In this document: one piece after another, positions 36,911-48,171 of the stretch
Numbering within the stretch: the stretch's first letter is position 1
Layout: every line of letters begins with the position of its first letter
IMG/VR virus record: IMGVR_UViG_3300040801_002121
Strand: one strand, 5' to 3'
DNA: 64,000 nt
From: a virus
Program-made: the position numbers and the translations under genes
Notes under the pieces: generated by a model
What the model was told of the DNA's origin: nothing
Database searches by the model: none
Seen by the model: the letters and a program-made list of their open reading frames with translations, nothing else

Positions 36911-36917
36911 GCAAAGG

Positions 36918-37707: not shown

Positions 37708-37733
37708 GTTGATTTCCTAAGTTCACAAAGTTG

Positions 37734-37762
37734 TTGACACGAATCGGTTCACTGTGCATAAC
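37734..37762 (+). promoter_or_regulatory. promoter of the recombinase gene
   Basis: TTGACA (37734-37739), 17 nt, CATAAC (37757-37762). Confidence 0.5.
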
Positions 37763-37795
37763 GGTGATACCGAAACAACAACGAGGAGTGAACTT

Positions 37796-38425: not shown

Positions 38426-38506
38426 TGAAATAAGCTGTTGACTTTGACAGCGGATTGAAGCAAACAAACATCACAACCACCTAACCAAAAACATACAGGA
38501 GGAATT

Positions 38507-39004: not shown

Positions 39005-39063
39005 AGAGCTTGCGAATCAGCGAGAGGGTCGCTAACACGATCCAACCACTCGTCAACCGACAG

Positions 39064-39099
39064 GCGGCCGTCATCGAAAGATGGCGGCCGTTGGTTTTT
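39064..39099 (+). terminator. rho-independent terminator
   Basis: Stem GCGGCCGTCAT/ATGGCGGCCG(T), then TTGGTTTTT. Confidence 0.7.
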
Positions 39100-39142
39100 A
39101 ACAAGGGTAGACAACTTTTTTCGCATCAGTGCAAATTAGTTG

Positions 39143-39171
39143 TTGACATAGAGGGCAAGTATCACTATACA
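39143..39171 (+). promoter_or_regulatory. promoter of the large non-coding RNA
   Basis: GCAAATTAGTTG-TTGACA (39143-39148), 17 nt, TATACA (39166-39171). Confidence 0.65.
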
Positions 39172-39738
39172 CCCTCTTCTCGACGCGATCGAGAGCTTAT
39201 TGAGAGGACTTCCGGCCAAGCGACGGTTTGGTTTGAGCGCCTGACGGGGCCAGTGAAGTAAACGGGGTCCTCACAGTAAGCTCTTGGAGCTACGAGATTC
39301 CCGCCTGAGGGAGATACGCACGGGCAACCGTGTTGAAAGAGGGTATGGCCACATAACCTCGCCAGTTTACGGATTGGTCAATTCAGGCAAGCGCAGCTTG
39401 ACCCGCGAGGGTCGTTCTATCCGCTGATCTCCTTCCAGAGGTCATGATAGGATAAGCTGGAAATCAGATGCAGGTCCCGAAGGGGATATGAATTGGGTAA
39501 CTCCGGATTCAGAAAGGGAGGCTTGGCGGCCTCCGCCTCATGCCAATCTGGTTGACAGGGGAAGCTAACGTGTAGGGCTCAGGTTCGAGGCTTAGCGGCC
39601 AAGGGCGGTGTCCAGTAGGAAGGGCGAAAGTCCTGACCGACCGTTCTATTAGCCTTAGCGGGTGAACGAATATGAGGTGTCTGACATTCCGTCGGTGGAA
39701 ACACTTATGGACTCAGGTGGCAGCACATCTCAGTGGCT

Positions 39739-39812
39739 TGCAATCTAGCATAATTGGTTAATGCAACTGACTCTTAATCAGTAGATTATTGGTTCAATCC
39801 CAATGATTTGTA
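39739..39812 (+). other. nested tRNA-Lys(CUU)-shaped module, AT-rich, defective acceptor stem, no CCA
   Basis: D arm GCAT/ATGC; anticodon arm ACTGA-CTCTTAA-TCAGT; T arm ATTGG-TTCAATC-CCAAT. Acceptor TGCAATC vs GATTTGT pairs at only 4 of 7 positions. 24/74 G+C. Confidence 0.55.
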
Positions 39813-40184
39813 AACGCAAAGATTGCCACGGCAGTGCGCCGAAAACGCCTAATGCTACCGGGGAAACCTAATGTAGCGCAAGCTGACCTCGCAAGGGAAA
39901 GCCTGTTTAGTGCAAGACGATTCGTTGGGGCTTAGCGGCTCCTTAATGGCGGGAAACCGTCAGCGGGAAGGAAAGCGCTGAAAAACGCACTGTGTCGCCG
40001 CAAACGCCAGCGGCCCCGTGAGAACCGGGAAAATTGGCGGCGTTGGTCGTAAACATGGGTAGCCGGTTTCCGGTCCTGTGTGGATAAGTCGGCAAGGTGG
40101 CCCGCAAGGTCATCGTAATCCGACGAATGGACGATCTGGCAAGGGCCTAATCTCAGCCCGCGCTACCACTGTTCAAGGTGGCTT

Positions 40185-40285
40185 ACAGGAACCATGGGGC
40201 GCATTAGGCCGATGCGTTTCCTTGGTGGAAGCCGGGCTTGCCATAGCCCGGTGGGAAGTTCGATCCCTCCGTCCATGGTTCCTGT
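40185..40285 (+). other. nested tRNA-like four-hairpin junction closed by a 13-bp helix
   Basis: ACAGGAACCATGG (40185-40197) pairs with CCATGGTTCCTGT (40273-40285). Inside are CGCAT/ATGCG, TTTC/GAAG, CGGGC/GCCCG hairpins and the T-arm look-alike GGAAG-TTCGATC-CCTCC. Confidence 0.55.
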
Positions 40286-40624
40286 AAATCACCCGTAACG
40301 CGGCCCCTCTTGCAGCAAAGCTGTTGGGCCTCACTAACCCGGCTCCGGACAGGCGAGAGAAGTAGTGACCTCCCGGCGACACGGTAAGCTTCGAGGTGCC
40401 ACGTTACAAGTGATGGTGCCCAAGGTCGGCGCAGCGGGGAGGTTTAGCTAACTTCCTTCACGTGCCCGCAGGCAAATACCGGTCCTAGTTGCTCGATCAC
40501 GCAGGCCGGATAATCTCCAGAGGCAGAAGCATCGAGCCGTCCATCTGGGGAATATGGGAAGCGCTGCAACTTGCTGCGTCGTCCTTGGCTACCAACTTAT
40601 TTTTGCCCTCAAGTCTTTTTTCTA

Positions 40625-40653
40625 TTGACAAGCCGACGCAGTTCGGTTATCAT
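40625..40653 (+). promoter_or_regulatory. promoter, first tRNA transcription unit
   Basis: TTGACA (40625-40630), 17 nt, TATCAT (40648-40653). Followed by the conserved TCAAGACGCGG..CCCGCAAA leader. Confidence 0.7.
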
Positions 40654-40705
40654 CAATGCCTCAAGACGCGGGATCGCCCGCAAAACACAGGATAACGAGT
40701 TTCAA

Positions 40706-40798
40706 ATGTTCAACGCATTCGCCATGAATAATATCGCACCGGTGGCCATTATGGTCCCAGCGATGGCGCGTGCGCTCGATGGAGGAACTACGTTCTAG
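40706..40798 (+). CDS. possible 30-aa peptide (MFNAFAMNNIAPVAIMVPAMARALDGGTTF)
   Basis: Short ORF between the conserved leader and a terminator. Weak RBS; may be non-coding. Confidence 0.3.
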   Translation: MFNAFAMNNIAPVAIMVPAMARALDGGTTF

Positions 40799-40828
40799 GC
40801 CGAACGTCCTCCAAAGCACAAGTTTACC

Positions 40829-40856
40829 AAGGCCTCCATTCGGGGGCCTTTTTCGT
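40829..40856 (+). terminator. hairpin + T-run
   Basis: AAGGCCTCC-ATTC-GGGGGCCTT then TTT. Confidence 0.55.
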
Positions 40857-40858
40857 TT

Positions 40859-40935
40859 CTGGGGTTAGCTCAGTCGGTAGAGCGCCCGGTTTGGGACCGG
40901 GAGGATCGGAGGTTCGAGCCCTCCACTCCAGACCA
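40859..40935 (+). tRNA. tRNA-Pro(TGG)
   Basis: Acceptor CTGGGGT/ACTCCAG (C1:G72); anticodon arm CCCGG-TTTGGGA-CCGGG; T arm GGAGG-TTCGAGC-CCTCC; A73; encoded CCA. Confidence 0.85.
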
Positions 40936-40942
40936 GTTTTAT

Positions 40943-41021
40943 CAGGCGGTGGAGAAGTCTGGCCGTTCTCGCCTCCCTCGGACGGAGGAGCCCGTAGGTT
41001 CAAATCCTACTCGCCTGACCA
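40943..41021 (+). tRNA. tRNA-Pro(CGG)
   Basis: Acceptor CAGGCGG/TCGCCTG; D stem GAGA/TCTC with an 11-nt loop; anticodon arm CCTCC-CTCGGAC-GGAGG; T arm GTAGG-TTCAAAT-CCTAC; CCA. Confidence 0.8.
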
Positions 41022-41022
41022 T

Positions 41023-41092
41023 AGCAGTGAAGTAGTTTGACCGGGGGCTCATAACCCTTAGGTTGGTGGCGCACCTCCACCCACTGCTACCA
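41023..41092 (+). tRNA. aberrant tRNA(CAT)-like, reduced D arm and non-canonical T loop
   Basis: Acceptor AGCAGTG/CACTGCT is perfect. Anticodon arm GGGGG-CTCATAA-CCCTT. T arm GGTGG-CGCACCT-CCACC (no TTC). Only 11 nt where the D arm should be. Encoded CCA. Confidence 0.5.
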
Positions 41093-41139
41093 GTTTCGTC
41101 CCCGGTTTCCGTCAAATCGGAAGGGACAAAGAAGTTCAT

Positions 41140-41215
41140 AGGCGATTAGCTCAGCGGTAGAGCGGGGTCTTTACACGTCCCGTCAGCGGCGGTTCGATCC
41201 CGTCATCGCCTACCA
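41140..41215 (+). tRNA. tRNA-Val(TAC)
   Basis: Acceptor AGGCGAT/ATCGCCT; anticodon loop TTTACAC; T arm GGCGG-TTCGATC-CCGTC; CCA. Confidence 0.85.
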
Positions 41216-41224
41216 AAGTTAAAT

Positions 41225-41301
41225 CCACGAGTAGTTCAGTCTGGTAGAACGTCCGCCTGATTAGCGGTATGTCGTAGGTTCAAATCCTACCTCGTGGTCC
41301 A
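41225..41301 (+). tRNA. tRNA-Ile(GAT)
   Basis: Acceptor CCACGAG/CTCGTGG; anticodon loop CTGATTA; T arm GTAGG-TTCAAAT-CCTAC; CCA. Confidence 0.85.
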
Positions 41302-41451
41302 GATAAGATAGAAGGCTGGAATAATGCCTGAAACGCGAGGGTTAGTCTCCTCGTAAGAGCGAGAACAATAGACCGAACCTGCGCTGGCGGATGAGTTGAC
41401 GACTCGCAATCCCAGTTAGCTTAGTAGGTTGAGTTCTCGCTAAAAGTTCAA

Positions 41452-41527
41452 GGGGCTGTAGCTCAGATGGGAGAGCGCCGGGCTTGCACCTCGGAGGCCG
41501 TCGGTTCGATCCCGACCAGTTCCACCA
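41452..41527 (+). tRNA. tRNA-Ala(TGC)
   Basis: Acceptor GGGGCTG/CAGTTCC with G3:U70; anticodon loop CTTGCAC; T arm GTCGG-TTCGATC-CCGAC; CCA. Confidence 0.9.
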
Positions 41528-41532
41528 GTTCG

Positions 41533-41561
41533 TTGACAAGGCTCGTCAACACGTGTATACT
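41533..41561 (+). promoter_or_regulatory. consensus-like promoter abutting tRNA-Asn
   Basis: TTGACA, 17 nt, TATACT. The predicted start falls at or inside the tRNA-Asn 5' end (41564), so its role is unclear. Confidence 0.4.
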
Positions 41562-41563
41562 AT

Positions 41564-41639
41564 TGGGTAGTGGCAGAGTGGTAATGTGCCCGACTGTTAA
41601 TCGGTGACCTCGCTGGTTCGATCCCAGCCTACCCAGCCA
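41564..41639 (+). tRNA. tRNA-Asn(GTT)
   Basis: Acceptor TGGGTAG/CTACCCA; anticodon loop CTGTTAA; T arm GCTGG-TTCGATC-CCAGC; G73; CCA. Confidence 0.85.
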
Positions 41640-41655
41640 GTATATAGGAGTTTCC

Positions 41656-41967
41656 ATGGGCCAACAACGTCTGAAATTGTCATATCGTCGTGGCGGTCTT
41701 CGAACCGATCACGAGACGCCGCCGCCGAAGCCTGATAATTCATGGCATGGCGTTCGTCAGTTCTGGACGCGGGCTTACGATGGGCTCTATTCGAACGATT
41801 ACGATCGTGGAGTGACAGACGCTCAGGCTGATCTCGACGAAGAGGTCACGACGCGCAGAGAAGCCTTGCTCTCCACGTCCAGTGCGAATAAGGACAAGGC
41901 ATGGGAAGCTTACCGCGACGGGTTCGAGGATACGCTTCGCAAGAACGACGGAACAACGCTTCGTTAG
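41656..41967 (+). CDS. hypothetical protein inside the tRNA island
   Basis: TAGGAG RBS 6 nt upstream of the ATG; 103 aa. Stop overlaps the 5' end of tRNA-Val(GAC) by 10 nt. Confidence 0.55.
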   Translation: MGQQRLKLSYRRGGLRTDHETPPPKPDNSWHGVRQFWTRAYDGLYSNDYDRGVTDAQADLDEEVTTRREALLSTSSANKDKAWEAYRDGFEDTLRKNDGTTLR

Positions 41968-42033
41968 CTCAGTGGTAGTAGCGCTCCCTTGACATGGGAG
42001 AGGCCGGATGTTCGAACCATCCACGAAGCACCA
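41958..42033 (+). tRNA. tRNA-Val(GAC)
   Basis: Acceptor GCTTCGT/ACGAAGC; anticodon arm CTCCC-TTGACAT-GGGAG; T arm GGATG-TTCGAAC-CATCC; CCA. Confidence 0.85.
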
Positions 42034-42223
42034 ATCCCTCAGACTGGGGGTAGACGAGCCGACCATGGCAGCGGACTTCGCGAGCCGTCCCCATGTTGGG
42101 TTGTCGTCGAAACGGAAGCGGCGCAGGCCACGGAACGCCTTTACACCGGTGAGGGCATGATCGATCGCCGTGAGAGCTTGCGCCGCTTCTACGATAAAAA
42201 TTACGGTGATAGGAAATTAGTGG

Positions 42224-42252
42224 TTGACATTCGTAACCGAATCACTTATCAT
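42224..42252 (+). promoter_or_regulatory. promoter, second copy of the promoter-leader module
   Basis: TTGACA (42224-42229), 17 nt, TATCAT (42247-42252), then TCAAGACGCGGAATATCCCGCAAAC. Confidence 0.7.
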
Positions 42253-42407
42253 CATTGGCATCAAGACGCGGAATATCCCGCAAACAGTTTAAGGAATTGG
42301 AAAACGCTATGACCTTTGGACGCACCAAACGAGATCGCCGGGAAGGCGATGAACGAGGTTTTACCTCGTAACCGGTGGTGCGTGCCTTGCTACTGGTTTG
42401 ATTTGTT

Positions 42408-42483
42408 GGATCAGTAGCTCAGTAGGCAGAGCGACGGGCTCTTAACCCGTAGGTCGTGGGATCGTTTCCCACCTGATCCTCCA
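42408..42483 (+). tRNA. tRNA-Lys(CTT), T loop ATCGTTT (A54/U58 swap)
   Basis: Acceptor GGATCAG/CTGATCC; anticodon arm ACGGG-CTCTTAA-CCCGT; T arm GTGGG-ATCGTTT-CCCAC; CCA. Confidence 0.8.
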
Positions 42484-42502
42484 AGTCAAATCAGAAGTTT
42501 TG

Positions 42503-42536
42503 AACGCTCCATCGGATAGCCCGGTGGGGCGTTTTT
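42503..42536 (+). terminator. hairpin + TTTTT
   Basis: AACGCTCCATC..GGTGGGGCGTT, then TTTTCG. Confidence 0.55.
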
Positions 42537-42554
42537 CGTGTTCCCGGTTCGTGT

Positions 42555-42631
42555 GGACCGGTAGCTCAGTAGGTAGAGCGGCGGGCTTTTAATCCGCGTC
42601 GTCGTGAGTTCGAACCTCACCCGGTCTGCCA
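42555..42631 (+). tRNA. tRNA-Lys(TTT)
   Basis: Acceptor GGACCGG/CCGGTCT; anticodon arm GCGGG-CTTTTAA-TCCGC; T arm GTGAG-TTCGAAC-CTCAC; CCA. Confidence 0.85.
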
Positions 42632-42646
42632 AAAATTAGACAGGAA

Positions 42647-42721
42647 GCGGGCGTAGCTCAGTGGTAGAGCGCTGCGTTGCCAACGCCGAGGTCGCGGGAT
42701 CGTAACCCGCCGCCCGCTCCA
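42647..42721 (+). tRNA. tRNA-Gly(GCC), T loop ATCGTAA (A54/U58 swap)
   Basis: Acceptor GCGGGCG/CGCCCGC; anticodon loop TTGCCAA; T arm GCGGG-ATCGTAA-CCCGC; U73; CCA. Confidence 0.8.
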
Positions 42722-42743
42722 GTCGCCAGTGATGAATGATGAT

Positions 42744-42820
42744 GCGGGTGTAGCTTAATGGCGAGAGCGGCTGGTTTCCACCCAGTCTAGGTGTCGGTTC
42801 GAGTCCGTCCACCCGCTCCA
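42744..42820 (+). tRNA. tRNA-Gly(TCC)
   Basis: Acceptor GCGGGTG/CACCCGC; anticodon arm GCTGG-TTTCCAC-CCAGT; T loop TTCGAGT; CCA. Confidence 0.85.
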
Positions 42821-42833
42821 TCATTTATTACAA

Positions 42834-42909
42834 GGAAGCGTAGCTCAGTTGGTAGAGTAGGGGATTGTCTATCCCAAGGTCGCGGGTTCGAACCCCGTCG
42901 TTTCCGCCA
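42834..42909 (+). tRNA. tRNA-Asp(GTC)
   Basis: Acceptor GGAAGCG/CGTTTCC; anticodon loop TTGTCTA; T arm GCGGG-TTCGAAC-CCCGT; G73; CCA. Confidence 0.85.
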
Positions 42910-42912
42910 GTT

Positions 42913-43053
42913 TGTAGTGTAGTTTAAGCTCCATAGGAGAGTGCGGGATCACGACCTGCCTCAAACAGGAGCACCGGCCTTCGTGAAGCCGGGGTATTAA
43001 AACAGCCACCACGTCAGGTGGAAAATGCAGGTGAAAGGCCTGTCACTACGCCA
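42913..43053 (+). other. oversized (~140 nt) tRNA-shaped RNA of unknown identity
   Basis: Ends pair like an acceptor stem (TGTAGTG / CACTACG) followed by CCA. Internal hairpins: GCGGG-ATCACGA-CCTGC, CCGGC-CTTCGTGAA-GCCGG, CCACC-ACGTCA-GGTGG, GCAGG-TGAAAGG-CCTGT. Confidence 0.4.
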
Positions 43054-43060
43054 GTTTACC

Positions 43061-43137
43061 GCCCCGTTGGTCTAGCGGTTCAGGACGCCCGGTTCTCAGC
43101 CGGGAGGACGCGAGTTCGAACCTCGCACGGGGCACCA
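43061..43137 (+). tRNA. tRNA-Glu(CTC)
   Basis: Acceptor GCCCCGT/ACGGGGC; anticodon arm CCCGG-TTCTCAG-CCGGG; T arm GCGAG-TTCGAAC-CTCGC; CCA. Confidence 0.88.
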
Positions 43138-43156
43138 GTTTGTTTGTTAAGTTCAC

Positions 43157-43234
43157 GTGGCGGTCCTATAACCGGTCTAATAGCTCTGACTTTCAATCAG
43201 AGGAATGCGGGTTCGAATCCCGTTCGCCACACCA
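43157..43234 (+). tRNA. tRNA-Glu(TTC)
   Basis: Acceptor GTGGCGG/TCGCCAC; D stem CTAT/ATAG; anticodon arm TCTGA-CTTTCAA-TCAGA; T arm GCGGG-TTCGAAT-CCCGT; CCA. Confidence 0.85.
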
Positions 43235-43253
43235 AGTTGATTCAAAAGTTAAT

Positions 43254-43330
43254 GCCCTTGTAGCTCAGTGGATTAGAGCAGTTGGCTACGAACCATCAGG
43301 TCGGGAGTTCGAATCTCTCCAAGGGCTCCA
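43254..43330 (+). tRNA. tRNA-Arg(ACG)
   Basis: Acceptor GCCCTTG/CAAGGGC; anticodon loop CTACGAA; T arm GGGAG-TTCGAAT-CTCTC; CCA. Confidence 0.85.
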
Positions 43331-43342
43331 GTTAATGTGTTA

Positions 43343-43418
43343 GGTGATGTAGCTCAGTTGGTAGAGCGGGAGCCTGAAAAGCTTCGCGTCGGAGGTTCAA
43401 GTCCTTCCTTCACCACCA
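43343..43418 (+). tRNA. tRNA-Phe(GAA)
   Basis: Acceptor GGTGATG/CTTCACC (one mismatch); anticodon arm GGAGC-CTGAAAA-GCTTC; T arm GGAGG-TTCAAGT-CCTTC; CCA. Confidence 0.85.
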
Positions 43419-43423
43419 TGTAT

Positions 43424-43495
43424 GCGCTCGCCGTGGATCGGGCTCTGGGCCTTCTAAGCCCACAGGCGAGCGTTCGATTCGCTCCGAGCGCTCCA
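43424..43495 (+). tRNA. tRNA-Arg(TCT) with shortened D arm
   Basis: Acceptor GCGCTCG/CGAGCGC; anticodon arm TGGGC-CTTCTAA-GCCCA; T arm GAGCG-TTCGATT-CGCTC; CCA. Only 15 nt between the acceptor and anticodon stems. Confidence 0.6.
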
Positions 43496-43504
43496 TATTA
43501 AAAC

Positions 43505-43533
43505 TTGACTATTCCGCAATTCTTAGTTACCAT
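43505..43533 (+). promoter_or_regulatory. promoter (spacer carries CCGCAATTCTT)
   Basis: TTGACT (43505-43510), 17 nt, TACCAT (43528-43533). Confidence 0.55.
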
Positions 43534-43559
43534 TCGGTCACTCAAGACAGGATTTTGAC

Positions 43560-43745
43560 GTGGCCAATTATGGACGTGTTGTTCACGCGGGACGTAGTGT
43601 ATGGCTTCCACCTGAACTCGTGCGAGAGATCAGGCAAGGCGGGCTGACCAACGAGCAGATTCAAACGCTCCTTGCACTGGCCGACGAACTGGATTCTGTT
43701 GATCTAATATCCACGTTTGAAACCGCCTTAAAGGATAGTGCCTAA
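43560..43745 (+). CDS. hypothetical protein
   Basis: GTG start; 61 aa; stop coupled to the next gene. Confidence 0.5.
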   Translation: MANYGRVVHAGRSVWLPPELVREIRQGGLTNEQIQTLLALADELDSVDLISTFETALKDSA

Positions 43746-44254
43746 TGTCGCTCGTTAATCAAGTCCAACTCCTAGCTCAACGTATCGCCGCTGAATGCAC
43801 CGACATTCGGACTCAGATCACCGACACCACCGGTGATTTGGCGGCACTGACCACAACAGACAAGACAAACCTTGTTGGTGCGGTCAATGAACTCAAGACA
43901 CTGATCGATCAGATCGATGCGACCGATATTATTGATGACACGACAGTCGGCACTGATACGACTTTTTCTTCGCAGAAGATCACCGATGACATCAATGTCG
44001 CGATCGCCGGTCTTGTCGATGGTGCGCCGGGTGCTCTCGATACGCTGAACGAACTCGCTGCGGCGCTGGGCGACAACGAGAGCGCCATTGCAACGATCAC
44101 CAATGGTTTGGCCAATCGTCTGCGTATTGATGCGCTCCAGACGCTTACCGCCCAACAGCAAGAATTTGGTCGCACCAATCTCGATGTCTATTCGAAAGCA
44201 GAAATCGGCGACATCGATACTGATTTTGTCGCGGTGTTCGAATCGGGCCTGTAA
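43745..44254 (+). CDS. tail-fibre-repeat (Phage_fiber_2-like) protein
   Basis: LVDGAPGALDTLNELAAALGDNESAI motif, typical of phage tail-fibre repeats; coiled N-terminus. Confidence 0.5.
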   Translation: MSLVNQVQLLAQRIAAECTDIRTQITDTTGDLAALTTTDKTNLVGAVNELKTLIDQIDATDIIDDTTVGTDTTFSSQKITDDINVAIAGLVDGAPGALDTLNELAAALGDNESAIATITNGLANRLRIDALQTLTAQQQEFGRTNLDVYSKAEIGDIDTDFVAVFESGL

Positions 44255-44539
44255 GTGCTCGCCGATCGGATTTCTTCCCTAGCGGAAGCTGTCCGGGCTC
44301 GCTTTGATGCCCTGACGATCGAAGACACGATTCGTATCGTGTCTTCGTTCTCCGAACTAGACGACGAAGAAGTTGGCGATTTGCTGATCTTCTCTTTGGG
44401 AGAAGGTCGCGAGCGTTATGGCCTCTACCAACGACAACCCGATGGACAGTATGTCCGTCTCAGCACGACTGGGCGTTCCTACCGAGTCGGCGCACAAACA
44501 CGTGATGAGCCGTGGTGGCGTTGGTGGATTTGGTGGTAA
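44255..44539 (+). CDS. hypothetical protein
   Basis: GTG start right after the previous stop; 94 aa. Confidence 0.5.
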   Translation: MLADRISSLAEAVRARFDALTIEDTIRIVSSFSELDDEEVGDLLIFSLGEGRERYGLYQRQPDGQYVRLSTTGRSYRVGAQTRDEPWWRWWIWW

Positions 44540-44569
44540 ACAAAAATTGCCCTTAGGCCAAAATAATCC

Positions 44570-44598
44570 TTGACTTCCGAATCGTTTCTGCTTATACT
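44570..44598 (+). promoter_or_regulatory. promoter
   Basis: A/T-rich upstream region, TTGACT (44570-44575), 17 nt, TATACT (44593-44598). Confidence 0.7.
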
Positions 44599-44690
44599 CC
44601 GCCGCATGAAGACACAGACCCACACCTTACAGCCGCTTACGCAGGCTTTGCTATGCCAACATTGGTATAGCACGAGTTCATCCCTCTAAG

Positions 44691-44720
44691 GGAGTGGTTC
44701 TGACGCGCCACTCCTTTGTT
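44691..44720 (+). terminator. hairpin + T-rich tail
   Basis: GGAGTGG-ttctgacgcg-CCACTCC, then TTTGTT. Confidence 0.5.
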
Positions 44721-44722
44721 AA

Positions 44723-44806
44723 GGAGGGTGGCGCACAGGGTGCAAACGGGTCTCGAAAACCCGGCTATCCGAGAGGTTAAGGGTTCGATTCCTTCACCCT
44801 CCGCCA
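44723..44806 (+). tRNA. tRNA-Ser(CGA)
   Basis: Acceptor GGAGGGT/ACCCTCC; anticodon arm CGGGT-CTCGAAA-ACCCG; long variable arm; T loop TTCGATT; G73; CCA. Confidence 0.8.
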
Positions 44807-44817
44807 ACAAGTTTCAA

Positions 44818-44849
44818 AGCGTCATTCCTTCCGGGAGTGGCGCTTTTTT
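44818..44849 (+). terminator. rho-independent terminator
   Basis: AGCGTCATTCC..GGGAGTGGCGCT (G:U-tolerant stem), then TTTTTT. Confidence 0.65.
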
Positions 44850-44857
44850 CGTTTTAT

Positions 44858-44942
44858 CCGTGGGTTCAGTCAGGGGCACTGACAGACGGCCTGTAAAGCC
44901 TGACCTTAACCGGGAGTAGTTCGACTCTACACCCACGGACCA
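44858..44942 (+). tRNA. tRNA-Tyr(GTA), irregular anticodon stem
   Basis: Acceptor CCGTGGG/CCCACGG; D arm CAGT-CAGGGGC-ACTG; loop CTGTAAA flanked by only GGC/GCC; T loop TTCGACT; CCA. Confidence 0.6.
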
Positions 44943-44984
44943 AATTCAATGTAATCAAGGAGATTGCTAAGTTTACGATCTGAC

Positions 44985-45063
44985 GTGCCGCTGGGCAAAT
45001 TTGGTAAAGTCGCTCGCCTCAGAAGCGAGAGTTCTCCCGGTTCGAGTCCGGGGCGGCGCACCA
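44985..45063 (+). tRNA. tRNA-Leu(CAG) with short (6-nt) variable region
   Basis: Acceptor GTGCCGC/GCGGCGC; Leu-type D loop AAATTTGGTAAA; anticodon arm CTCGC-CTCAGAA-GCGAG; variable AGTTCT; T arm CCCGG-TTCGAGT-CCGGG; A73; CCA. Confidence 0.75.
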
Positions 45064-45070
45064 GATCGAT

Positions 45071-45154
45071 GGGGATATGGCGAAATTTGGTAAACGTAGC
45101 GTCTTGAGAGGGCGTGGCTTCGGCTTCTGGGTTCAAGTCCCAGTATCCCCACCA
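45071..45154 (+). tRNA. tRNA-Leu(GAG)
   Basis: Acceptor GGGGATA/TATCCCC; anticodon arm GCGTC-TTGAGAG-GGCGT; 11-nt variable arm; T arm CTGGG-TTCAAGT-CCCAG; CCA. Confidence 0.82.
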
Positions 45155-45163
45155 AGTTCGAAT

Positions 45164-45238
45164 GCCGGATTAGCTCAGTGGTAGTAGCAGGGCCGTCGTA
45201 ACGCCAAGACAAGAGTTCGATTCTCTTATCCGGCTCCA
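45164..45238 (+). tRNA. tRNA-Thr(CGT), weak anticodon stem
   Basis: Acceptor GCCGGAT/ATCCGGC; anticodon loop GTCGTAA; T arm AAGAG-TTCGATT-CTCTT; CCA. Confidence 0.7.
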
Positions 45239-45253
45239 TCGTTAAAATATGTG

Positions 45254-45281
45254 TTGACATATAATTTGCAGGGAATATACG
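45254..45281 (+). promoter_or_regulatory. promoter
   Basis: TTGACA (45254-45259), 16 nt, TATACG (45276-45281). Confidence 0.55.
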
Positions 45282-45297
45282 CAGTAACAGATTTCAT

Positions 45298-45377
45298 GGT
45301 GTTGGTAGCTCAGTTGGTTAGAGCGGGAGGTTGTGAACCTCTGTCAGTCGTGGGTTCAAGTCCCATCCTTCACCCCA
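45298..45377 (+). tRNA. tRNA-His(GTG)
   Basis: G-1 present and C73; anticodon arm GGAGG-TTGTGAA-CCTCT; T arm GTGGG-TTCAAGT-CCCAT; CCA. Acceptor has two U:U mismatches. Confidence 0.75.
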
Positions 45378-45382
45378 GTTAT

Positions 45383-45448
45383 GAGGCCACGCCCCAGACT
45401 TAGACAGGGGCCGGTTGATCAGCGGGTTCAAGTCCCGGTGGCCTCCCA
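45383..45448 (+). tRNA. aberrant 64-66 nt tRNA-like element lacking one arm
   Basis: Acceptor GAGGCCA/TGGCCTC is perfect; T arm (G)CGGG-TTCAAGT-CCCG(G). The only other helix is GCCCC(A)G-ACTTAGA-C(A)GGGGC, followed by an 11-nt linker. Confidence 0.4.
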
Positions 45449-45449
45449 T

Positions 45450-45527
45450 TGCACGTCTTGCTGGCTGGTCCGGCCGCCTGACTCTGAATCAGGAAAGATA
45501 GAGGTTCGAGTCCTCGGCGTGCATCCA
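45450..45527 (+). tRNA. tRNA-Gln(CTG)
   Basis: U1:A72 acceptor TGCACGT/GCGTGCA; anticodon arm CCTGA-CTCTGAA-TCAGG; T loop TTCGAGT; CCA. Confidence 0.82.
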
Positions 45528-45578
45528 GTTTGCGGAGATAGTTATGAAGACAGTTGAAAGCCCAGATCGACAACCTAA

Positions 45579-45652
45579 TGCCCCTTCGGCTAATGGTAAG
45601 TCAGCGCCCTTTGAAGGCGAAGACGTTGGTTCGATCCCAACAGGGGCATCCA
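45579..45652 (+). tRNA. tRNA-Gln(TTG)
   Basis: U1:A72 acceptor TGCCCCT/AGGGGCA; anticodon loop CTTTGAA; T arm GTTGG-TTCGATC-CCAAC; CCA. Confidence 0.85.
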
Positions 45653-45668
45653 GACAAGTAGGCGAGTG

Positions 45669-45812
45669 ATGGTAGCACCCATCGACCGCCTGAGAGCAGT
45701 TCCAGTGGACGGCAAGGAAGGCACGTTCATTCTGGTGGACAAGGTAACAGGAGAGCCGTTCGATGTAGCGGCCGAGATCAACAAGGCGTTCATCGCCGGA
45801 AAGTGCAGGTAA
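45669..45812 (+). CDS. possible 47-aa protein (MVAPIDRLRAVPVDGKEGTFILVDKVTGEPFDVAAEINKAFIAGKCR)
   Basis: Short ORF between two tRNAs with a weak RBS. Below the ORF-track cutoff. Confidence 0.35.
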   Translation: MVAPIDRLRAVPVDGKEGTFILVDKVTGEPFDVAAEINKAFIAGKCR

Positions 45813-45815
45813 TTC

Positions 45816-45903
45816 GGAGTGTGCTGGGGTTGGCTCCCCACGCGGTTTGCTAAATCGTAGTGGCCTTCACGGGTCAGAGGTTCGATGCCTCCACGCTCCT
45901 CCA
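45816..45903 (+). tRNA. tRNA-Ser(GCT)
   Basis: Acceptor GGAGTGT/ACGCTCC; anticodon arm GCGGT-TTGCTAA-ATCGT; long variable arm; T loop TTCGATG; CCA. Confidence 0.82.
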
Positions 45904-45910
45904 ACTTTAT

Positions 45911-45985
45911 GCGACGGTGGCGGAGTATTATCGCGCTTGGCTGCAAACTAAGAGAACGCCGGTGAGATTCCGGCCCGTCGCTCCA
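45911..45985 (+). tRNA. tRNA-Cys(GCA) with non-canonical D and T loops
   Basis: Acceptor GCGACGG/CCGTCGC; anticodon arm CTTGG-CTGCAAA-CTAAG; T arm GCCGG-TGAGATT-CCGGC (no TTC); D loop AGTATTA (no GG); CCA. Confidence 0.75.
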
Positions 45986-46000
45986 GATCAAAGACACTGT

Positions 46001-46074
46001 GGGGGTGTCGTCTAACGGTAAGACCCCGGCTTCCAACTCCGGTAATTAGGGTTCGACTCCTTACTCCCCCGCCA
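46001..46074 (+). tRNA. tRNA-Trp(CCA)
   Basis: Acceptor GGGGGTG/CTCCCCC; anticodon loop TTCCAAC; T arm TAGGG-TTCGACT-CCTTA; G73; CCA. Confidence 0.82.
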
Positions 46075-46083
46075 AGTCAACAT

Positions 46084-46159
46084 GCCGGTGTAGCTCAGAG
46101 GCCAGAGCAGCGCTCTTGTAAAGCGAAGGTCGTCGGTTCGACTCCGACCTCCGGCTCCA
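46084..46159 (+). tRNA. tRNA-Thr(TGT)
   Basis: Acceptor GCCGGTG/CTCCGGC; anticodon loop CTTGTAA; T arm GTCGG-TTCGACT-CCGAC; CCA. Confidence 0.85.
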
Positions 46160-46228
46160 TTTTCCACTTGACAAGTTCCCCCTTATCGTTACAGGTGTTG
46201 TCACCGAAACGAATCAAAGGAGGTTTTC

Positions 46229-46345
46229 ATGATCATCGGAGGTTTATTTTTCTTGTTCTGTCTTTACCTCATTGGAGGTAAAGAACTGGCAGGAGGTGTT
46301 GTCAAGCTTGTTTTAGGTGTGGGCCTCCTCCTTCTGTTTCTCTGA
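46229..46345 (+). CDS. 38-aa hydrophobic membrane peptide (MIIGGLFFLFCLYLIGGKELAGGVVKLVLGVGLLLLFL)
   Basis: Strong RBS AAAGGAGG 7 nt upstream. Two hydrophobic segments. Below the ORF-track cutoff. Confidence 0.65.
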   Translation: MIIGGLFFLFCLYLIGGKELAGGVVKLVLGVGLLLLFL

Positions 46346-46348
46346 ACC

Positions 46349-46422
46349 AGTCCTGTAGCTTAATGGTAAAGCTGGGGCCTCATAAGCCTTAGATGGTGGT
46401 TCAATTCCATCCGGGACTACCA
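46349..46422 (+). tRNA. tRNA-Met(CAT) (elongator or Ile2-type)
   Basis: Acceptor AGTCCTG/CGGGACT; anticodon arm GGGGC-CTCATAA-GCCTT; T arm GGTGG-TTCAATT-CCATC; CCA. Confidence 0.82.
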
Positions 46423-46423
46423 T

Positions 46424-46501
46424 GCGGGCGTGGCGAAATTGGTAAACGCACGGGATTTAAGCTTCCGCAAACTGAGAGTTCGAGTCTCTCCGCCCGCACC
46501 A
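46424..46501 (+). tRNA. tRNA-Leu(TAA) with short (6-nt) variable region
   Basis: Acceptor GCGGGCG/CGCCCGC; Leu-type D loop AAATTGGTAAA; anticodon arm CGGGA-TTTAAGC-TTCCG; variable CAAACT; T arm GAGAG-TTCGAGT-CTCTC; A73; CCA. Confidence 0.78.
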
Positions 46502-46509
46502 TTTTCTGC

Positions 46510-46538
46510 TTGACAAATCCGAATCAGTCTGGCAGTAT
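46510..46538 (+). promoter_or_regulatory. promoter of the tmRNA transcription unit
   Basis: TTGACA (46510-46515), 17 nt, CAGTAT (46533-46538). Confidence 0.55.
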
Positions 46539-46544
46539 TCTCAC

Positions 46545-46930
46545 ATGATCGTAATTCGATCGACTGAATTTTGGTCTGGACGCGGGGGCAGAGCCCGCCA
46601 CCTCCACCATCTATTCTCGCAGGCGGTAAGTGTCCGAATGCGAAGCTCATGACCGGGGAGCAACAGGTTGTCCCGGCGCGATGCGAGGATAGTTGATGGG
46701 GGTGAATTTAGGATCGACAGGCCCGATGAAAGAAGAGCGCGATCAAGCTTGACCGACTTTAACAGGTCACCGCATGTAAATGCAATCGACAACGTAGTTG
46801 TCGCCAACGACAACGACGCCGAGGTTCGCCTCGCCGCCTGAGTTGGCAAAATCCCTGCGGCGATCAACTCCGTAGGTGGCGTATTGGCTCCACGTAGCAA
46901 CAGGACGGGCCAGTTAGTTTTATGGACCCT
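46545..46930 (+). ncRNA. ssrA: two-piece, circularly permuted tmRNA (acceptor piece ~46545-46609, coding piece from 46698; 3' end uncertain, may reach ~47030)
   Basis: Upstream T arm GCGGG-GGCAGAG-CCCGC plus CACCTCC-ACCA (46582-46609). Downstream GGGGGTG-AATTTAGGATCGACAGG (46698-) pairs perfectly with it, including G3:U70. Tag ORF GCC..TGA at 46803-46841 encodes ANDNDAEVRLAA. Confidence 0.8.
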
Positions 46931-47035
46931 GCACCGCTACGAGTATGTGCGAGAGTCACTACCAAGGGCCGGATCGCAACCGGTTCCAGTCGTGGCAAGG
47001 CATTTGTTTACGAATGGGGGTCCGCCAAGTTACCA

Positions 47036-47159
47036 GAGAGTCTGCTGGAATGGTAGACGGGGCTGGCGAGGACCTATAAATCCACTCATGGTCCAAACCG
47101 GCTGTCTCGCGGCAGTGGATAGCTGCAAAGACGTGAGGGTTCGAATCCCTCGGCTCTCT
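47036..47159 (+). other. oversized (124 nt) tRNA-Leu-like RNA with expanded anticodon and variable arms
   Basis: Acceptor GAGAGTC/GGCTCTC; Leu-type D arm CTG-GAATGGTAGA-CGG; canonical T arm GAGGG-TTCGAAT-CCCTC. The stem GCTGG/CCGGC encloses 31 nt, including the GGACC..GGTCC hairpin. No CCA. Confidence 0.5.
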
Positions 47160-47166
47160 GGTTAAA

Positions 47167-47237
47167 GTGTCGTCAGCCCACCTCGGTATGCTTAGAGCAG
47201 GAAGAGAAGAGCGAAGGTGGTGAGACGCTTTTTTTTT
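47167..47237 (+). terminator. strong terminator ending the tmRNA unit
   Basis: Long imperfect stem GTGTCGTCAGCCCACCTCG..CGAAGGTGGTGAGACGC followed by T9. Confidence 0.7.
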
Positions 47238-47238
47238 G

Positions 47239-47267
47239 TTGACAGGCCGGATGAATTGTCCTATCAA
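47239..47267 (+). promoter_or_regulatory. promoter of the ~0.37 kb ncRNA
   Basis: TTGACA (47239-47244), 17 nt, TATCAA (47262-47267). Confidence 0.65.
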
Positions 47268-47273
47268 CAGATC

Positions 47274-47643
47274 AACGAAACGAAGTGATTCGCTCTCTTC
47301 GTCAGACCTGATCTAGCCGACGGGCGAAAGATCAATGAAACAGGTCACAGGATGCCGACCATGGAAACGGCCTGTGGAATGCGGAGATTGGTCAGGGCTG
47401 ATGAAGATGGTGATTCGACCCGCGATGGGACTTTGCTCGGTCCTTAGAGCACGCGGTATAAGGGAGCTTGCGCCTCGGGCTTCTAACGAATTGTAGCGGA
47501 CGGCTGCGTCACAGGATGGCGTGGAGATAAGCCGCTAGAGGCCGTAGTTACCGTATCCCGGAGAACCGTCTGTCTCCGCTTTCGATGACCGGGATGCACA
47601 GGCCCGCCTCCGCTGTAAAGCGTCGAGGCGGGTCTTTACTTTT
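47274..47643 (+). ncRNA. ~370-nt non-coding RNA of unknown class
   Basis: Own promoter and an intrinsic terminator (CCCGCCTC..GAGGCGGG + TCTTTACTTTT, 47603-47643). No plus-strand ORF. Confidence 0.55.
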
Positions 47644-47649
47644 AACGCA

Positions 47650-47691
47650 GGGCAAATTTTGCTTGACATATAGGGCCCACTTAGGTAACAA
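47650..47691 (+). promoter_or_regulatory. promoter with GGGCAAATTTTGC upstream element
   Basis: GGGCAAATTTTGC-TTGACA (47663-47668), 17 nt, TAACAA (47686-47691). Confidence 0.6.
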
Positions 47692-47721
47692 TATAAGCTC
47701 CTTTCCCGACAAGGACCTTAC

Positions 47722-48171
47722 ATGACTACCATCGCTTATCGATCCGGCGTGCTGGCCGCAGACACGCTGATTGCCTACCATACCATCACAAACGGAGAAC
47801 GTGACAAGATTGAGCGATGTGGAGATTTTCTGGTGGCCATGGCCGGTGCTACGTGGGTGCGGCCAATTCTCGAAGAGTGGGTCGCCCATGGGTGTGATCC
47901 CAATGAAGTTCCCGAACAGCTTCTCGACAATCAAGAAAAATTTGCCGCGTTGATCATTGGTCCCAATGGTCTCGCACATGAATTTGACAGCGGATACCTT
48001 GTCCCTGTCCACGCCGATTACACCGCAATCGGATCAGGCGCTCTTATTGCTATGGGCGCTATGGCTCACGGAGCCACTGCCGAAGAAGCTGTGATGGCCG
48101 CTTCTCGGCATGATAAAGCAACTGGTGGCCCGGTGACCGCCCACAAAGTTGAAGGCCTTCCATGCTCCTGA
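47722..48171 (+). CDS. HslV/proteasome-beta-like Ntn-hydrolase peptidase
   Basis: N-terminus MTTIAYRSGVLAADT (Thr nucleophile after Met), then ..KIERCGDFLVAMAGA.., matching the HslV TTIV..G.V..A.D..K(V).R..(V)A.AG pattern. Confidence 0.6.
   Translation: MTTIAYRSGVLAADTLIAYHTITNGERDKIERCGDFLVAMAGATWVRPILEEWVAHGCDPNEVPEQLLDNQEKFAALIIGPNGLAHEFDSGYLVPVHADYTAIGSGALIAMGAMAHGATAEEAVMAASRHDKATGGPVTAHKVEGLPCS

Follow-up and report, generated by a model that had tools for sequence, protein, structure and literature searches.

Organization of the locus

The window, that is the whole 64-kb stretch of viral DNA analysed, shows a tmRNA gene of the circularly permuted type located downstream of a large array of tRNA genes. 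The acceptor half of the gene ends at 46609 and the coding half begins at 46698, with a segment of 88 nt between them. The main features of the region are:

37754-38425: tyrosine recombinase gene, upstream of the tRNA array
39739..46501, + strand: array of 30 tRNA genes (ARAGORN and Rfam), which ends 9 bp before the tmRNA promoter
46510..46538, + strand: sigma-70-type promoter (TTGACA 46510-15, 17-nt spacer, CAGTAT 46533-38)
46546..46609, + strand: acceptor piece of ~64 nt (Rfam alignments, consensus fold and pair counts)
46610..46697, + strand: intervening segment of 88 nt, presumed excised, whose interior is not conserved among relatives
46698..46925, + strand: coding piece of ~215-228 nt (Rfam, consensus fold and pair counts)
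46926..47237, + strand: spacer of ~310 bp in three parts, from the tmRNA to the next promoter (47239)
51424-52665: RtcB RNA ligase

Furthermore, a gene encoding an HslV-family peptidase (47722-48171) is found ~800 bp downstream of the tmRNA 3' end.

ARAGORN called a permuted tmRNA at 46517-46932 of the window. Rfam searches of the window gave full-length matches to RF04321 (tmRNA_permuted; 91.2 bits, E = 2.9e-16) and RF01849 (alpha_tmRNA; 80.5 bits, E = 3.2e-20), both above the gathering thresholds of 47 and 50 bits, respectively. The original prediction, which proposed a phage-borne permuted tmRNA of alphaproteobacterial type and named ARAGORN and the alpha_tmRNA model as checks, is thus supported by two independent detectors, as well as by the covariation and the synteny with sequenced phages described below. 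No riboswitch was found in the window with Rfam.

The tRNA-like domain shows a 7-bp acceptor stem, a G3:U70 pair, A73, a 3' CCA and a 5-bp T arm. The T arm (GCGGG 46582-86, loop GGCAGAG 46587-93 and CCCGC 46594-98) is base for base as predicted, and it is followed by the acceptor 3' strand CACCTCC (46599-46605) and ACCA (46606-09), whose coordinates had also been given correctly. The 5' half, GGGGGTG-AATTTAGGATCGACAGG, starts at 46698 as proposed. The acceptor stem formed by the two strands has 7 bp; in it G3 (46700) faces U70 (46603), and A73 is the discriminator.

Homologous genes in phages and metagenomes

Homologous genes were found in vB_EliS-L02 (L02), XM05, Cp1R7A-A1 and Lacusarx, in a phage-like contig of Sphingobium sp. 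MK2 and in several metagenomic contigs. The window gene aligns with its relatives in L02, XM05 and Lacusarx, and all share the promoter, a hairpin in the open reading frame and the EVRLAA end. In at least three deposited genomes (L02, XM05 and Cp1R7A-A1) the gene is present and unannotated, and neither the L02 paper nor the L02 GenBank record mentions a tmRNA. In XM05, a CDS that is probably spurious overlies the tmRNA gene.

Scanning genome contigs with a T-arm/acceptor pattern gave 13 loci, nine of which are titled Saccharibacteria or Saccharimonadia MAGs. One-piece tmRNAs were found in both non-alphaproteobacterial loci checked (L244 and L255), while other matches include Aureimonas flava and the phage-like Sphingobium sp. 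MK2 contig; no Erythrobacter ssrA was among the 13 loci of this one scan. The metagenome scan gave 43 loci, with related tmRNAs in three only (L259, L284 and L294). A window-specific 20-mer of the coding piece showed no match in IMG/VR, therefore no exact copy of that 20-mer is present there.

Fold of the RNA

The helices of the two pieces and of their precursor are:

46546-51, 46557-61 and 46573-78, + strand: 3' strands of the P2 helices, in the acceptor piece
46718-23, 46735-39 and 46740-45, + strand: 5' strands of the P2 helices, in the coding piece
46606-16 with 46687-97, + strand: precursor helix that extends the acceptor stem, at the base of the intervening segment
46698-704, + strand: acceptor 5' strand GGGGGTG at the start of the coding piece, followed by the D-loop analogue AATTTAGGATCGAC
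46750-54 (TGACC) with 46765-69 (GGTCA), + strand: hairpin at the PK1 position
46832-36 with 46877-81, + strand: P5-like helix of the coding piece
46854-60 with 46870-76, + strand: hairpin of the coding piece
46886-90 with 46907-11, + strand: terminal hairpin, followed by GTTAGTTTTAT (46913-23)

In an alignment of seven related genes, pairing reaches 91.5% over the 61 base pairs of this fold, whereas slid controls give 37-44%; compensatory (double) changes are seen in 28 pairs, compared with 5-11 in the controls. None of 500 shuffles matched any of the covariation measures. The acceptor stem and its extension (16 pairs) are 99.1% paired, with compensatory changes in nine, and the three P2 helices (also 16 pairs) are 82-93% paired, again with nine pairs showing compensatory changes. 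The T arm is 100% paired and two of its five pairs covary. G3:U70 does not vary in any of the sequences (7/7 and 11/11), and the pairs next to it covary. The covarying hairpins at 46750-69, 46854-76 and 46886-911 are located at the positions expected for pseudoknots, as hairpin stems only. The 3' end of the coding piece was placed approximately, according to the terminal hairpin and the T-rich tail common to the relatives.

Tag reading frame and resume codon

The tag frame and the hairpins inside it are:

46782..46841, + strand: tag frame, with predicted resume codon GCA 46782-84, 19 codons encoding AIDNVVVANDNDAEVRLAA and stop codon TGA 46839-41
46787-93 (CGACAAC) with 46797-803 (GTTGTCG), + strand: hairpin A, -7.3 kcal/mol
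46797-803 (GTTGTCG) with 46808-14 (CGACAAC), + strand: hairpin B, -9.1 kcal/mol, in the window only

The original prediction described a tag frame from GCC to TGA at 46803-46841. The frame and its LAA end are present; however, a start at 46803 is the less probable one, as the homologous resume codon is GCA 46782. This codon is seven codons upstream of 46803 and in the same frame, and ANDNDAEVRLAA is the C-terminal part of AIDNVVVANDNDAEVRLAA. The tag is likely to be AIDNVVVANDNDAEVRLAA, with translation resuming at GCA 46782. Both ARAGORN and the Rfam alignment place the resume codon at this position, which aligns to the alpha_tmRNA consensus uuAuAAuU-GCaAACGAcAAc and, in every relative, to the xNDN start. 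The frame has no start codon, its resume context, GUAAAU-GCA, shows an upstream motif containing U-A, and it ends in ...RLAA and TGA. Furthermore, a resume codon 3' of the hairpin would not fit into the tags of L181 (VNDNDVVEALAA) and XM05, which are short. The tag has 19 residues, against 12-17 in the relatives, and residue 2 is Ile in the window and Asn in all nine hairpin-bearing relatives. Every relative retains a tag frame that ends in LAA and a stop codon, and all indels are multiples of three.

Hairpin A (7 bp) extends over tag codons 2-8 and is kept in 10 of the 11 aligned tmRNAs, those of the window and nine relatives, with the exception of Cp1R7A-A1. Hairpins A and B are mutually exclusive (46787..46814), and it is the duplication of NDN in the window phage that creates the pair. 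Among 53 distinct alpha-type tag frames of IMG/VR, the lineage member L02 is the only one with a hairpin at the tag start, which is found in none of the 52 frames from outside the lineage. A pattern scan of IMG/VR for the hairpin, CGACAACGNNGTTGTCG, gave at least 120 matches, mostly unrelated palindromes, and L181 is the sole tmRNA among the matches listed.

These features could also be read, at a rather low probability, as a gene of the same kind that resumes downstream, at GCC 46803 or GUC 46800, with a tag of 12 or 13 residues (ANDNDAEVRLAA or VANDNDAEVRLAA) and the upstream AIDN as a decayed relic. Such a tag would have the canonical ANDN motif and a length typical next to IMG/VR tags, and the Ile of the upstream-start tag, where the relatives carry Asn, would fit a relic. 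Moreover, a window-specific loop change from GAU to GUA creates GUAGUU-GUC at 46800, which resembles GUAAUU-GUC GCA of Cp1R7A-A1 and has U-5/A-4 like E. coli, whose resume context is reportedly UAGUC-GCA with U-5/A-4, as Williams et al. in 1999 and Miller et al. in 2008 are said to have described. However, positions 46797-46803 lie within the 7-bp stem of both alternative hairpins and GCA 46782 lies outside both, the two detectors agree on 46782, and the homologous upstream codon is the sole workable start in the relatives with short tags. As the two frames coincide, a ribosome starting upstream passes the downstream site anyway. Thermodynamic cofolding of the two pieces, run for resume-codon accessibility, did not recover the comparative P2 helices, and it was therefore given no weight on this point.

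A distinctly more speculative proposal is that the start of the tag frame is a regulated, structured element (palindrome NDN-x-VV). The NDN duplication would then add a second resume context, GUAGUU-GUC-GCC, and two exclusive hairpins, which might allow tags of two lengths, 19 or 12-13 residues, or gate the tagging, maybe with the HslV-family peptidase as a phage-controlled tag-and-degrade module.

Promoter and downstream region

The prediction that the unit has its own promoter at 46510-46538 was upheld in part: both hexamers are present and their position is conserved in relatives, but the -10 hexamer is weak and the promoter was missed by a consensus scan because only 3/6 positions of the -10 match. 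TTGACA and the 17-nt spacer are found at the equivalent place in six relatives, with the -10 variants CAGTAT, CATGAT, TATCAT, TAAGTA, TATATA and TATATT, and this positional conservation is what supports the promoter. The 5' end of the alpha_tmRNA model in Rfam also covers the region, and the transcription start is predicted near 46545.

The spacer downstream of the tmRNA, which may be a read-through tail of its transcript, consists of:

46926-47030, + strand: segment common only to the metagenomic relative L294
47033-47161, + strand: tRNA-like element, window-specific
47229-47237, + strand: T9 run, preceded by an imperfect long hairpin

The T9 run had been predicted as a terminator with no coordinates. 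In the element at 47033-47161 the T arm (47135-51) is perfect and the acceptor stem has 7-8 bp, so that the element resembles a tRNA but cannot be recognised as one. ARAGORN made no default call on it, and Rfam gave no match at the gathering score or at E values up to 10. With introns allowed, ARAGORN reports a forced tRNA-Ala(ggc) that needs an insert of 35 nt, a D stem of 3 bp and a long variable arm. The element was rejected as a tRNA, a selenocysteine tRNA and an intron-bearing tRNA, as it fits no model. The closest relatives lack it, neither sequenced phages nor IMG/VR contain a homologue, and it does not particularly resemble the class II tRNAs of the phage group.

Phage genome context

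Both flanks of the gene in the window are collinear with Erythrobacter phage vB_EliS-L02, at ~79% identity. Around 65-79% of the flanks queried (1-24000 and 30000-50000) aligns collinearly to this phage, and the aligned stretches span genes for DNA polymerase, ligase, ribonucleotide reductase, rIIA and primase. The order of tRNA array and then tmRNA is also found in L02, XM05, L307 and the Sphingobium sp. MK2 contig. That the window could be a bacterial chromosome and the gene the cell's own ssrA would agree with a gene of ordinary alphaproteobacterial type, but the collinearity of the flanks with a phage, together with the array of 30 tRNAs and the phage-family proteins beside the gene, leaves this reading next to no probability. 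Host DNA and an att-site fragment were both rejected as readings of the tmRNA, on synteny and completeness.

It is very unlikely that the gene is an inert passenger without a role in infection, either a host ssrA captured once or an integration-site remnant. tmRNA genes are frequent integration sites whose fragments occur in prophages, and the tRNA array is preceded by a tyrosine recombinase gene; however, the window gene is full length, its structure is kept through the 28 compensatory pair changes among tmRNA sequences that are ~70-80% identical or less, and both its promoter and its place at the end of the tRNA array are retained. The compensatory changes and the fixed place after the array point to a long-standing phage gene, not a recent host capture, so the host clue reaches the class or order level only. 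At the level of class, the clue drawn in the original prediction from the alphaproteobacterial type of the gene is upheld by the detectors, the covariation and the synteny. Altogether, the element is very probably a functional ssrA of the circularly permuted alphaproteobacterial type, inherited in a CbK/Lacusarx-like siphophage lineage that infects Sphingomonadales.

Proposed function

In the proposed mechanism, transcription from the promoter at 46510-38 would give a precursor of ~380 nt, in which the 3' tRNA-like half (46546-46609) and the 5' half (46698 on) would fold together through the 7-bp acceptor stem and the three P2 helices. Host tRNA-processing enzymes would then remove the 88-nt intervening hairpin, with an RNase P cut 5' of G46698 and 3' trimming to ACCA46609, leaving two RNAs joined by base pairing, the acceptor RNA of ~64 nt and the coding RNA of ~220 nt. 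The product would be charged with alanine by the host AlaRS via G3:U70 and A73, and delivered by the host SmpB to ribosomes stalled on broken mRNAs. Translation would most probably resume at GCA 46782 and append (A)AIDNVVVANDNDAEVRLAA, whose ...LAA end is the usual degron for host ClpXP-type proteases. The gain for the phage could be that its ribosome-rescue capacity is topped up during infection. A tblastn search with E. coli SmpB as query found no SmpB in the 64-kb window, and its hits in the phage collection include none of the records of the four relatives, which would make the RNA reliant on host factors.

An RNA that acts mainly as an antagonist or decoy was also considered. By competing with the host tmRNA for SmpB, AlaRS or stalled ribosomes, it would spare phage proteins from host tagging; alternatively, the tag it adds would have a different fate. 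[quoted passage not shown] 2017, PMC5648845), and tmRNA is inhibited by the TLD-only tmRNA of phage DS6A, or a similar molecule. With no phage SmpB found, the RNA must use the host pool; the conserved hairpin over codons 2-8 could impede loading of the tag frame, and the HslV-family peptidase gene lies nearby. However, the indels have left every relative with a complete in-frame tag, the canonical LAA degron and a stop codon, and a pure decoy has no need of a reading frame, which DS6A has lost; these points make a decoy improbable.

As a carrier of a putative ribosome-rescue RNA, the window phage adds one more to those catalogued. The tmRNA, the 30 tRNAs and the RtcB RNA ligase look like a translation-maintenance module, and their proximity supports the view that these large siphophages bring a translation-maintenance kit. 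In addition, the double-NDN tag could serve as a handy natural marker for locating the resume site by mass spectrometry.

Comparison with known systems

The closest sequences are those of L02 (OL955261.1, ~75738-76146) and the metagenomic L294, L304 and L307, with ~76-78% identity over the matched region, which in the L294 group covers the entire gene. Like the window, they show the promoter and the place after tRNA-Leu(taa), and the HslV-family peptidase gene is likewise found downstream. However, their resume codon is GUC (Val) instead of GCA (Ala), with tags VNDND/AVVVARDEVRLAA of 17 residues; relative to these, the window has Ile instead of Asn at residue 2, and NDNDA replaces RD. Furthermore, L02 does not have the 310-bp spacer, so that the end of its tmRNA abuts the homologue of the 47239 promoter, and L294 does not have the tRNA-like element.

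The two-piece tmRNA of Caulobacter crescentus and other Alphaproteobacteria (RF01849) also shows the acceptor piece upstream of the coding piece, a T loop of the GGC type that characterises the alpha group, P2 helices that join the pieces and an ANDN...AA tag. The window gene differs from that of Caulobacter in being on a phage, in the hairpin over tag codons 2-8 and in its longer tag. Processing and function of the Caulobacter RNA were reportedly proven by Keiler, Shapiro and Williams in 2000, while those of the window gene are predicted.

This kind of gene is already known in phages, and published two-piece phage tmRNAs include that of the related phage Lacusarx. Sphingobium phage Lacusarx has an annotated ssrA (KY629563.1 74819-75212, LAV_00111; Nielsen et al. 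2017, PMC5648845), and, as in the window, it is a permuted alpha-type tmRNA of a CbK-like Sphingomonadales siphophage, encoded on the strand that also carries a large tRNA array. Its tag, ANDNDVVTAEVRLAA, shares with that of the window the NDN-x-VV start, the hairpin in the frame and the EVRLAA end; however, it has 15 residues and neither the second NDN nor hairpin B, and ~3.7 kb of ORFs lie between the tRNA array and ssrA. The Lacusarx gene is too diverged from the window gene for a BLAST link. In the survey of Buchholz et al. 2022 (PMC9004378), 53 of the 133 unique phage tmRNA structures are two-piece forms, and the table includes Lacusarx, Phaeobacter phage MD18 and Mesorhizobium phage Cp1R7A-A1.

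Marine phages such as OM43 phage Melnitz and the pelagimyophages also carry a permuted ssrA of alphaproteobacterial descent, although Melnitz is a myophage and its ssrA carries a glutamine riboswitch (PMC9004378). Mycobacteriophages of the Bxz1 group and DS6A are, in turn, lytic phages that combine a tmRNA with large tRNA sets (Hudson, Lau & Williams 2014, PMC4131195); their genes are unpermuted and DS6A has no tag frame, whereas the gene in the window is permuted and its frame is complete.

Identification of the permuted tmRNA gene

The circularly permuted, two-piece tmRNA gene of the original prediction was examined by direct reading of positions 46300-47300, and all of its elements were seen where they had been placed:

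46582-46598: T arm, GCGGG (46582-86), loop GGCAGAG (46587-93) and CCCGC (46594-98)
46599-46609: acceptor 3' strand, CACCTCC (46599-46605), then ACCA (46606-09)
from 46698: 5' half, GGGGGTG-AATTTAGGATCGACAGG, 88 nt past the acceptor half

The acceptor strands pair at seven positions, G3 faces U70 and the discriminator is A73. ARAGORN called a permuted tmRNA at 46517-46932, and full-length matches were obtained with the Rfam models tmRNA_permuted (91.2 bits, E = 2.9e-16, threshold 47) and alpha_tmRNA (80.5 bits, E = 3.2e-20, threshold 50); because of this call and these two matches above threshold, the two-piece tmRNA gene of the window is real, far beyond chance.

Phage context and related genes

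The window flanks are collinear with Erythrobacter phage vB_EliS-L02 (L02, OL955261.1) at about 78-80% identity, across the DNA ligase, ribonucleotide reductase, DNA polymerase, rIIA and primase genes, and show more distant matches to Erythrobacter phage XM05 and Sphingobium phage Lacusarx. The tmRNA lies among the following genes:

39739-46501: 30 tRNA genes (ARAGORN), same strand as the tmRNA, the array ending 9 bp before the tmRNA promoter
47722-48171: HslV-family peptidase gene (phrog_1040, E = 8e-34; 91% identical to the L02 protein)
downstream of the tmRNA: large primase-like gene
51424-52665: RtcB RNA ligase (Pfam, E = 2e-124)

Owing to the L02 synteny, the tRNA array and the downstream gene content, the window is assigned to a phage of the CbK/Lacusarx-like siphophage group infecting Sphingomonadales and not to a bacterial chromosome; that its tmRNA is host DNA is, given the phage synteny, barely conceivable.

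ARAGORN found neither tRNA-Tyr nor tRNA-Ser(gct) in the window, both of which are present in L02, and gaps in the array, such as 44806-44985 and 45652-45911, could hold undetected genes. A 169-aa ORF inside the array (43745-44254) matches phrog_4757 and many tail-fibre families. Just upstream of the array lies a tyrosine recombinase (37754-38425; Phage_integrase, E = 2e-22); the phage group is described as lytic.

Permuted tmRNAs occupy the equivalent place in L02, XM05 and Mesorhizobium phage Cp1R7A-A1, unannotated in all three GenBank records, and, under the annotation ssrA, in Lacusarx. They were also found in IMG/VR and metagenome contigs (L181/L306, L259/L302, L284/L301 and L294/L304/L307), and a phage-like 126.5-kb contig of Sphingobium sp. 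MK2 carries the same tRNA array with a permuted tmRNA after it. The closest relatives are L294/L304/L307 (76% identity over the whole gene) and L02 (about 77-78% over the matched region). The MK2 contig (NZ_JAZDXA010000011.1, NODE_9, 126,565 bp, coverage 128) is near Lacusarx in size (130 kb) and probably represents the genome of a phage that was assembled together with its host. In XM05, a 'hypothetical protein' CDS, XM05_242 (L002 1644-1781; PV416404.1 149786-149923), overlaps the tmRNA coding piece on the other strand and is probably spurious.

Consensus fold and covariation

The RNAalifold consensus of seven aligned genes agrees with the known two-piece architecture and comprises, in window coordinates:

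46546-51/46740-45, 46557-61/46735-39 and 46573-78/46718-23: three P2 helices joining the pieces
T arm and acceptor stem
46606-16/46687-97: continuation of the acceptor helix within the intervening segment
hairpin within the tag frame
46832-36/46877-81: P5-like helix that encloses the stop codon
two 3' hairpins

At the positions of the pseudoknots, only hairpins were found in this fold. Across the 61 named pairs, 91.5% of cells were paired and 28 pairs showed compensatory changes, compared with 37-44% and 5-11 in slid controls, and none of 500 shuffles reached any of the pairing measures. The G:U acceptor pair is invariant (7/7 and 11/11 sequences), and the adjoining pairs covary. The 88-nt spacer has an unconserved interior and a strongly covarying basal stem, as would be expected of a processing substrate.

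Tag frame and resume codon

ARAGORN reads the tag from GCA 46782 to TGA 46841, encoding AIDNVVVANDNDAEVRLAA. The tag frame first proposed, GCC 46803 to TGA 46841, is in frame and contained in this one, and only its start is moved, to GCA 46782. In the Rfam alignment UGUAAAU/GCA sits on the family consensus uuAuAAuU/GCaAACGAcAAc, and the tags of the relatives begin at the same aligned position.

Tags of related tmRNAs
Lacusarx: ANDNDVVTAEVRLAA
L02: VNDNDVVVARDEVRLAA
L294: VNDNAVVVARDEVRLAA
Sphingobium sp. MK2 contig: VNDNEVVEMRLAA
XM05: VNDNDVVETPMALAA
L181/L306: VNDNDVVEALAA
L259: ANDNTVVEARLAA
L284: VNDNTVVEARLAA

The tag frame is kept through in-frame indels, which makes a decoy or antagonist role of the tmRNA unlikely.

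CGACAAC-NNN-GTTGTCG forms a 7-bp hairpin spanning tag codons 2-8 in 10 of 11 aligned tmRNAs, namely the window and all relatives but Cp1R7A-A1; among 53 distinct alpha-type tag frames from IMG/VR, only that of L02 has a hairpin at this place. In L181 and XM05, resuming past the hairpin would leave nothing useful, and therefore the hairpin would lie inside the translated frame in this lineage. Based on this, the Rfam alignment and the starts of the relatives, the resume codon is probably GCA 46782.

A downstream resume codon, which would leave the gene identity unchanged, is possible but distinctly less probable. Three changes specific to the window (Ile at tag residue 2, which is Asn in other lineage members; hairpin loop GAU to GUA; an extra GCC-AAC-GAC-AAC-GAC) jointly make GUAGUU/GUC-GCC, which shares U-5/A-4 with the resume context of E. 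coli, resembles GUAAUU/GUC-GCA of Cp1R7A-A1 and is followed by the canonical ANDN. However, 46797-46803 is paired both in hairpin A (with 46787-93) and in hairpin B, where the duplicated CGACAAC at 46808-14 offers GTTGTCG an alternative partner, whereas GCA 46782 is outside both. With hairpin B (-9.1 kcal/mol, versus -7.3 for hairpin A), 15 nt at the start of the tag frame stay unpaired. The C-terminal degron is identical whether translation resumes at GCA 46782 or downstream.

The L259/L302 and L284/L301 tmRNAs are almost identical but for a swapped cassette that separates the PK1 position from the resume codon (...GCATGTAAAT/GCA versus ...GCCAACGACTTAACG/GTC) and brings Ala or Val, respectively, as first tag residue. 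Of these two cassettes, the GCA type is present in the window and the GTC type in L02 and L294, to which the window is closest, a pattern suggestive of recombination inside the tmRNA gene.

Promoter and 3' end

The promoter originally placed at 46510-46538 was not called by a consensus scan, because its -10 CAGTAT matches only three of six positions; nevertheless, TTGACA with a 17-nt spacer stands at the equivalent position in six relatives (-10 variants CAGTAT, CATGAT, TATCAT, TAAGTA, TATATA and TATATT), and on this positional conservation we accept it as the candidate tmRNA promoter. From it, transcription is predicted to begin near 46545, at the first P2 pair. That the gene is an inert passenger or the remnant of an att site is very improbable in view of the covariation, the promoter conservation and the fixed position.

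A hairpin (46886-46911) and, after it, GTTAGTTTTAT close the gene; the T runs of relatives at this place are comparable or better. The tmRNA of L02 is directly followed by the next promoter, whose homologue in the window (47239-47267, TTGACA-17-TATCAA) lies about 310 bp farther on. Transcription of the tmRNA may read through as far as the T9 run (47229-37).

Sequences downstream of the tmRNA

About 105 nt right after the tmRNA (46926-47030) are conserved in L294/L304/L307 and absent from L02, and their end (AATGGGGGTCCGCC) has the look of a decayed counterpart to the T-arm-like sequence GGGGGTTCGACTCCCCC of XM05. An orphan tRNA-like element follows at 47033-47161. Its acceptor stem has 8 bp, CCAGAGAG/CTCTCTGG, or 7 bp if taken as GAGAGTC/GGCTCTC; the T arm, GAGGG-TTCGAAT-CCCTC (47135-51), is perfect, the D stem is short, the variable arm is long and class-II-like, and the anticodon arm contains an inserted 25-nt hairpin (47070-94). 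The element is called neither by Rfam nor by ARAGORN at default settings, and ARAGORN -i forces it into a 'tRNA-Ala(ggc)' whose intron would measure 35 nt. L02 and L294 lack the element, and neither sequenced phages nor IMG/VR contain a homologue. L294 shows a further T-arm-plus-CCA-like sequence more downstream, and the spacer between tmRNA and peptidase seems to collect tRNA-like debris. The HslV-family (proteasome-like) peptidase, N-terminal MTT..., lies about 800 bp past the tmRNA 3' end and has no Pfam match at 1e-3; the adjacency of tmRNA and protease gene also occurs in L02, XM05 and L294, which are close relatives and thus not independent evidence.

Host factors

A tblastn search with E. 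coli SmpB (100% identical to annotated copies) found nothing significant in the 64-kb window, and the L02, XM05, Lacusarx and Cp1R7A-A1 records were not among the matches in the phage collection. Because SmpB was found neither in the window nor in these records, the phage tmRNA would rely on host SmpB, AlaRS, RNase P and proteases.

Genome contigs were scanned once for host ssrA with the 32-nt T-arm/acceptor pattern GGACGCGGGGGCAGARCCCGCCNNCTCCACCA, giving 13 loci (L244-L255 among them), nine of them titled Saccharibacteria or Saccharimonadia MAGs; no Erythrobacter ssrA was among them. This pattern is otherwise typical of the present alpha-type phage tmRNA; the only two non-alphaproteobacterial loci checked, L244 (Saccharimonadales) and L255 (a Clostridia MAG), carry one-piece tmRNAs that share this T-arm pattern.

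Comparison with known two-piece tmRNAs

Two-piece tmRNA was reportedly established for Alphaproteobacteria by Keiler and colleagues in 2000, and Rfam RF01849 (alpha_tmRNA) is the family model of this type. Knowledge of phage tmRNAs goes back to the Bxz1-type mycobacteriophages (PMC4131195). Buchholz et al. 2022 described 133 unique phage tmRNA structures, 53 of them two-piece, and their table includes Lacusarx, Phaeobacter phage MD18 and Cp1R7A-A1 (PMC9004378); 79 phage sequences are contained in a tmRNA database of 2025 (PMC11915505). For Lacusarx, 'a single tmRNA' is described in its paper (PMC5648845); the L02 paper makes no mention of tmRNA (PMC9127768). Since alphaproteobacterial and phage two-piece tmRNAs have already been reported, the phage two-piece tmRNA is known as a kind, and the window adds another example.
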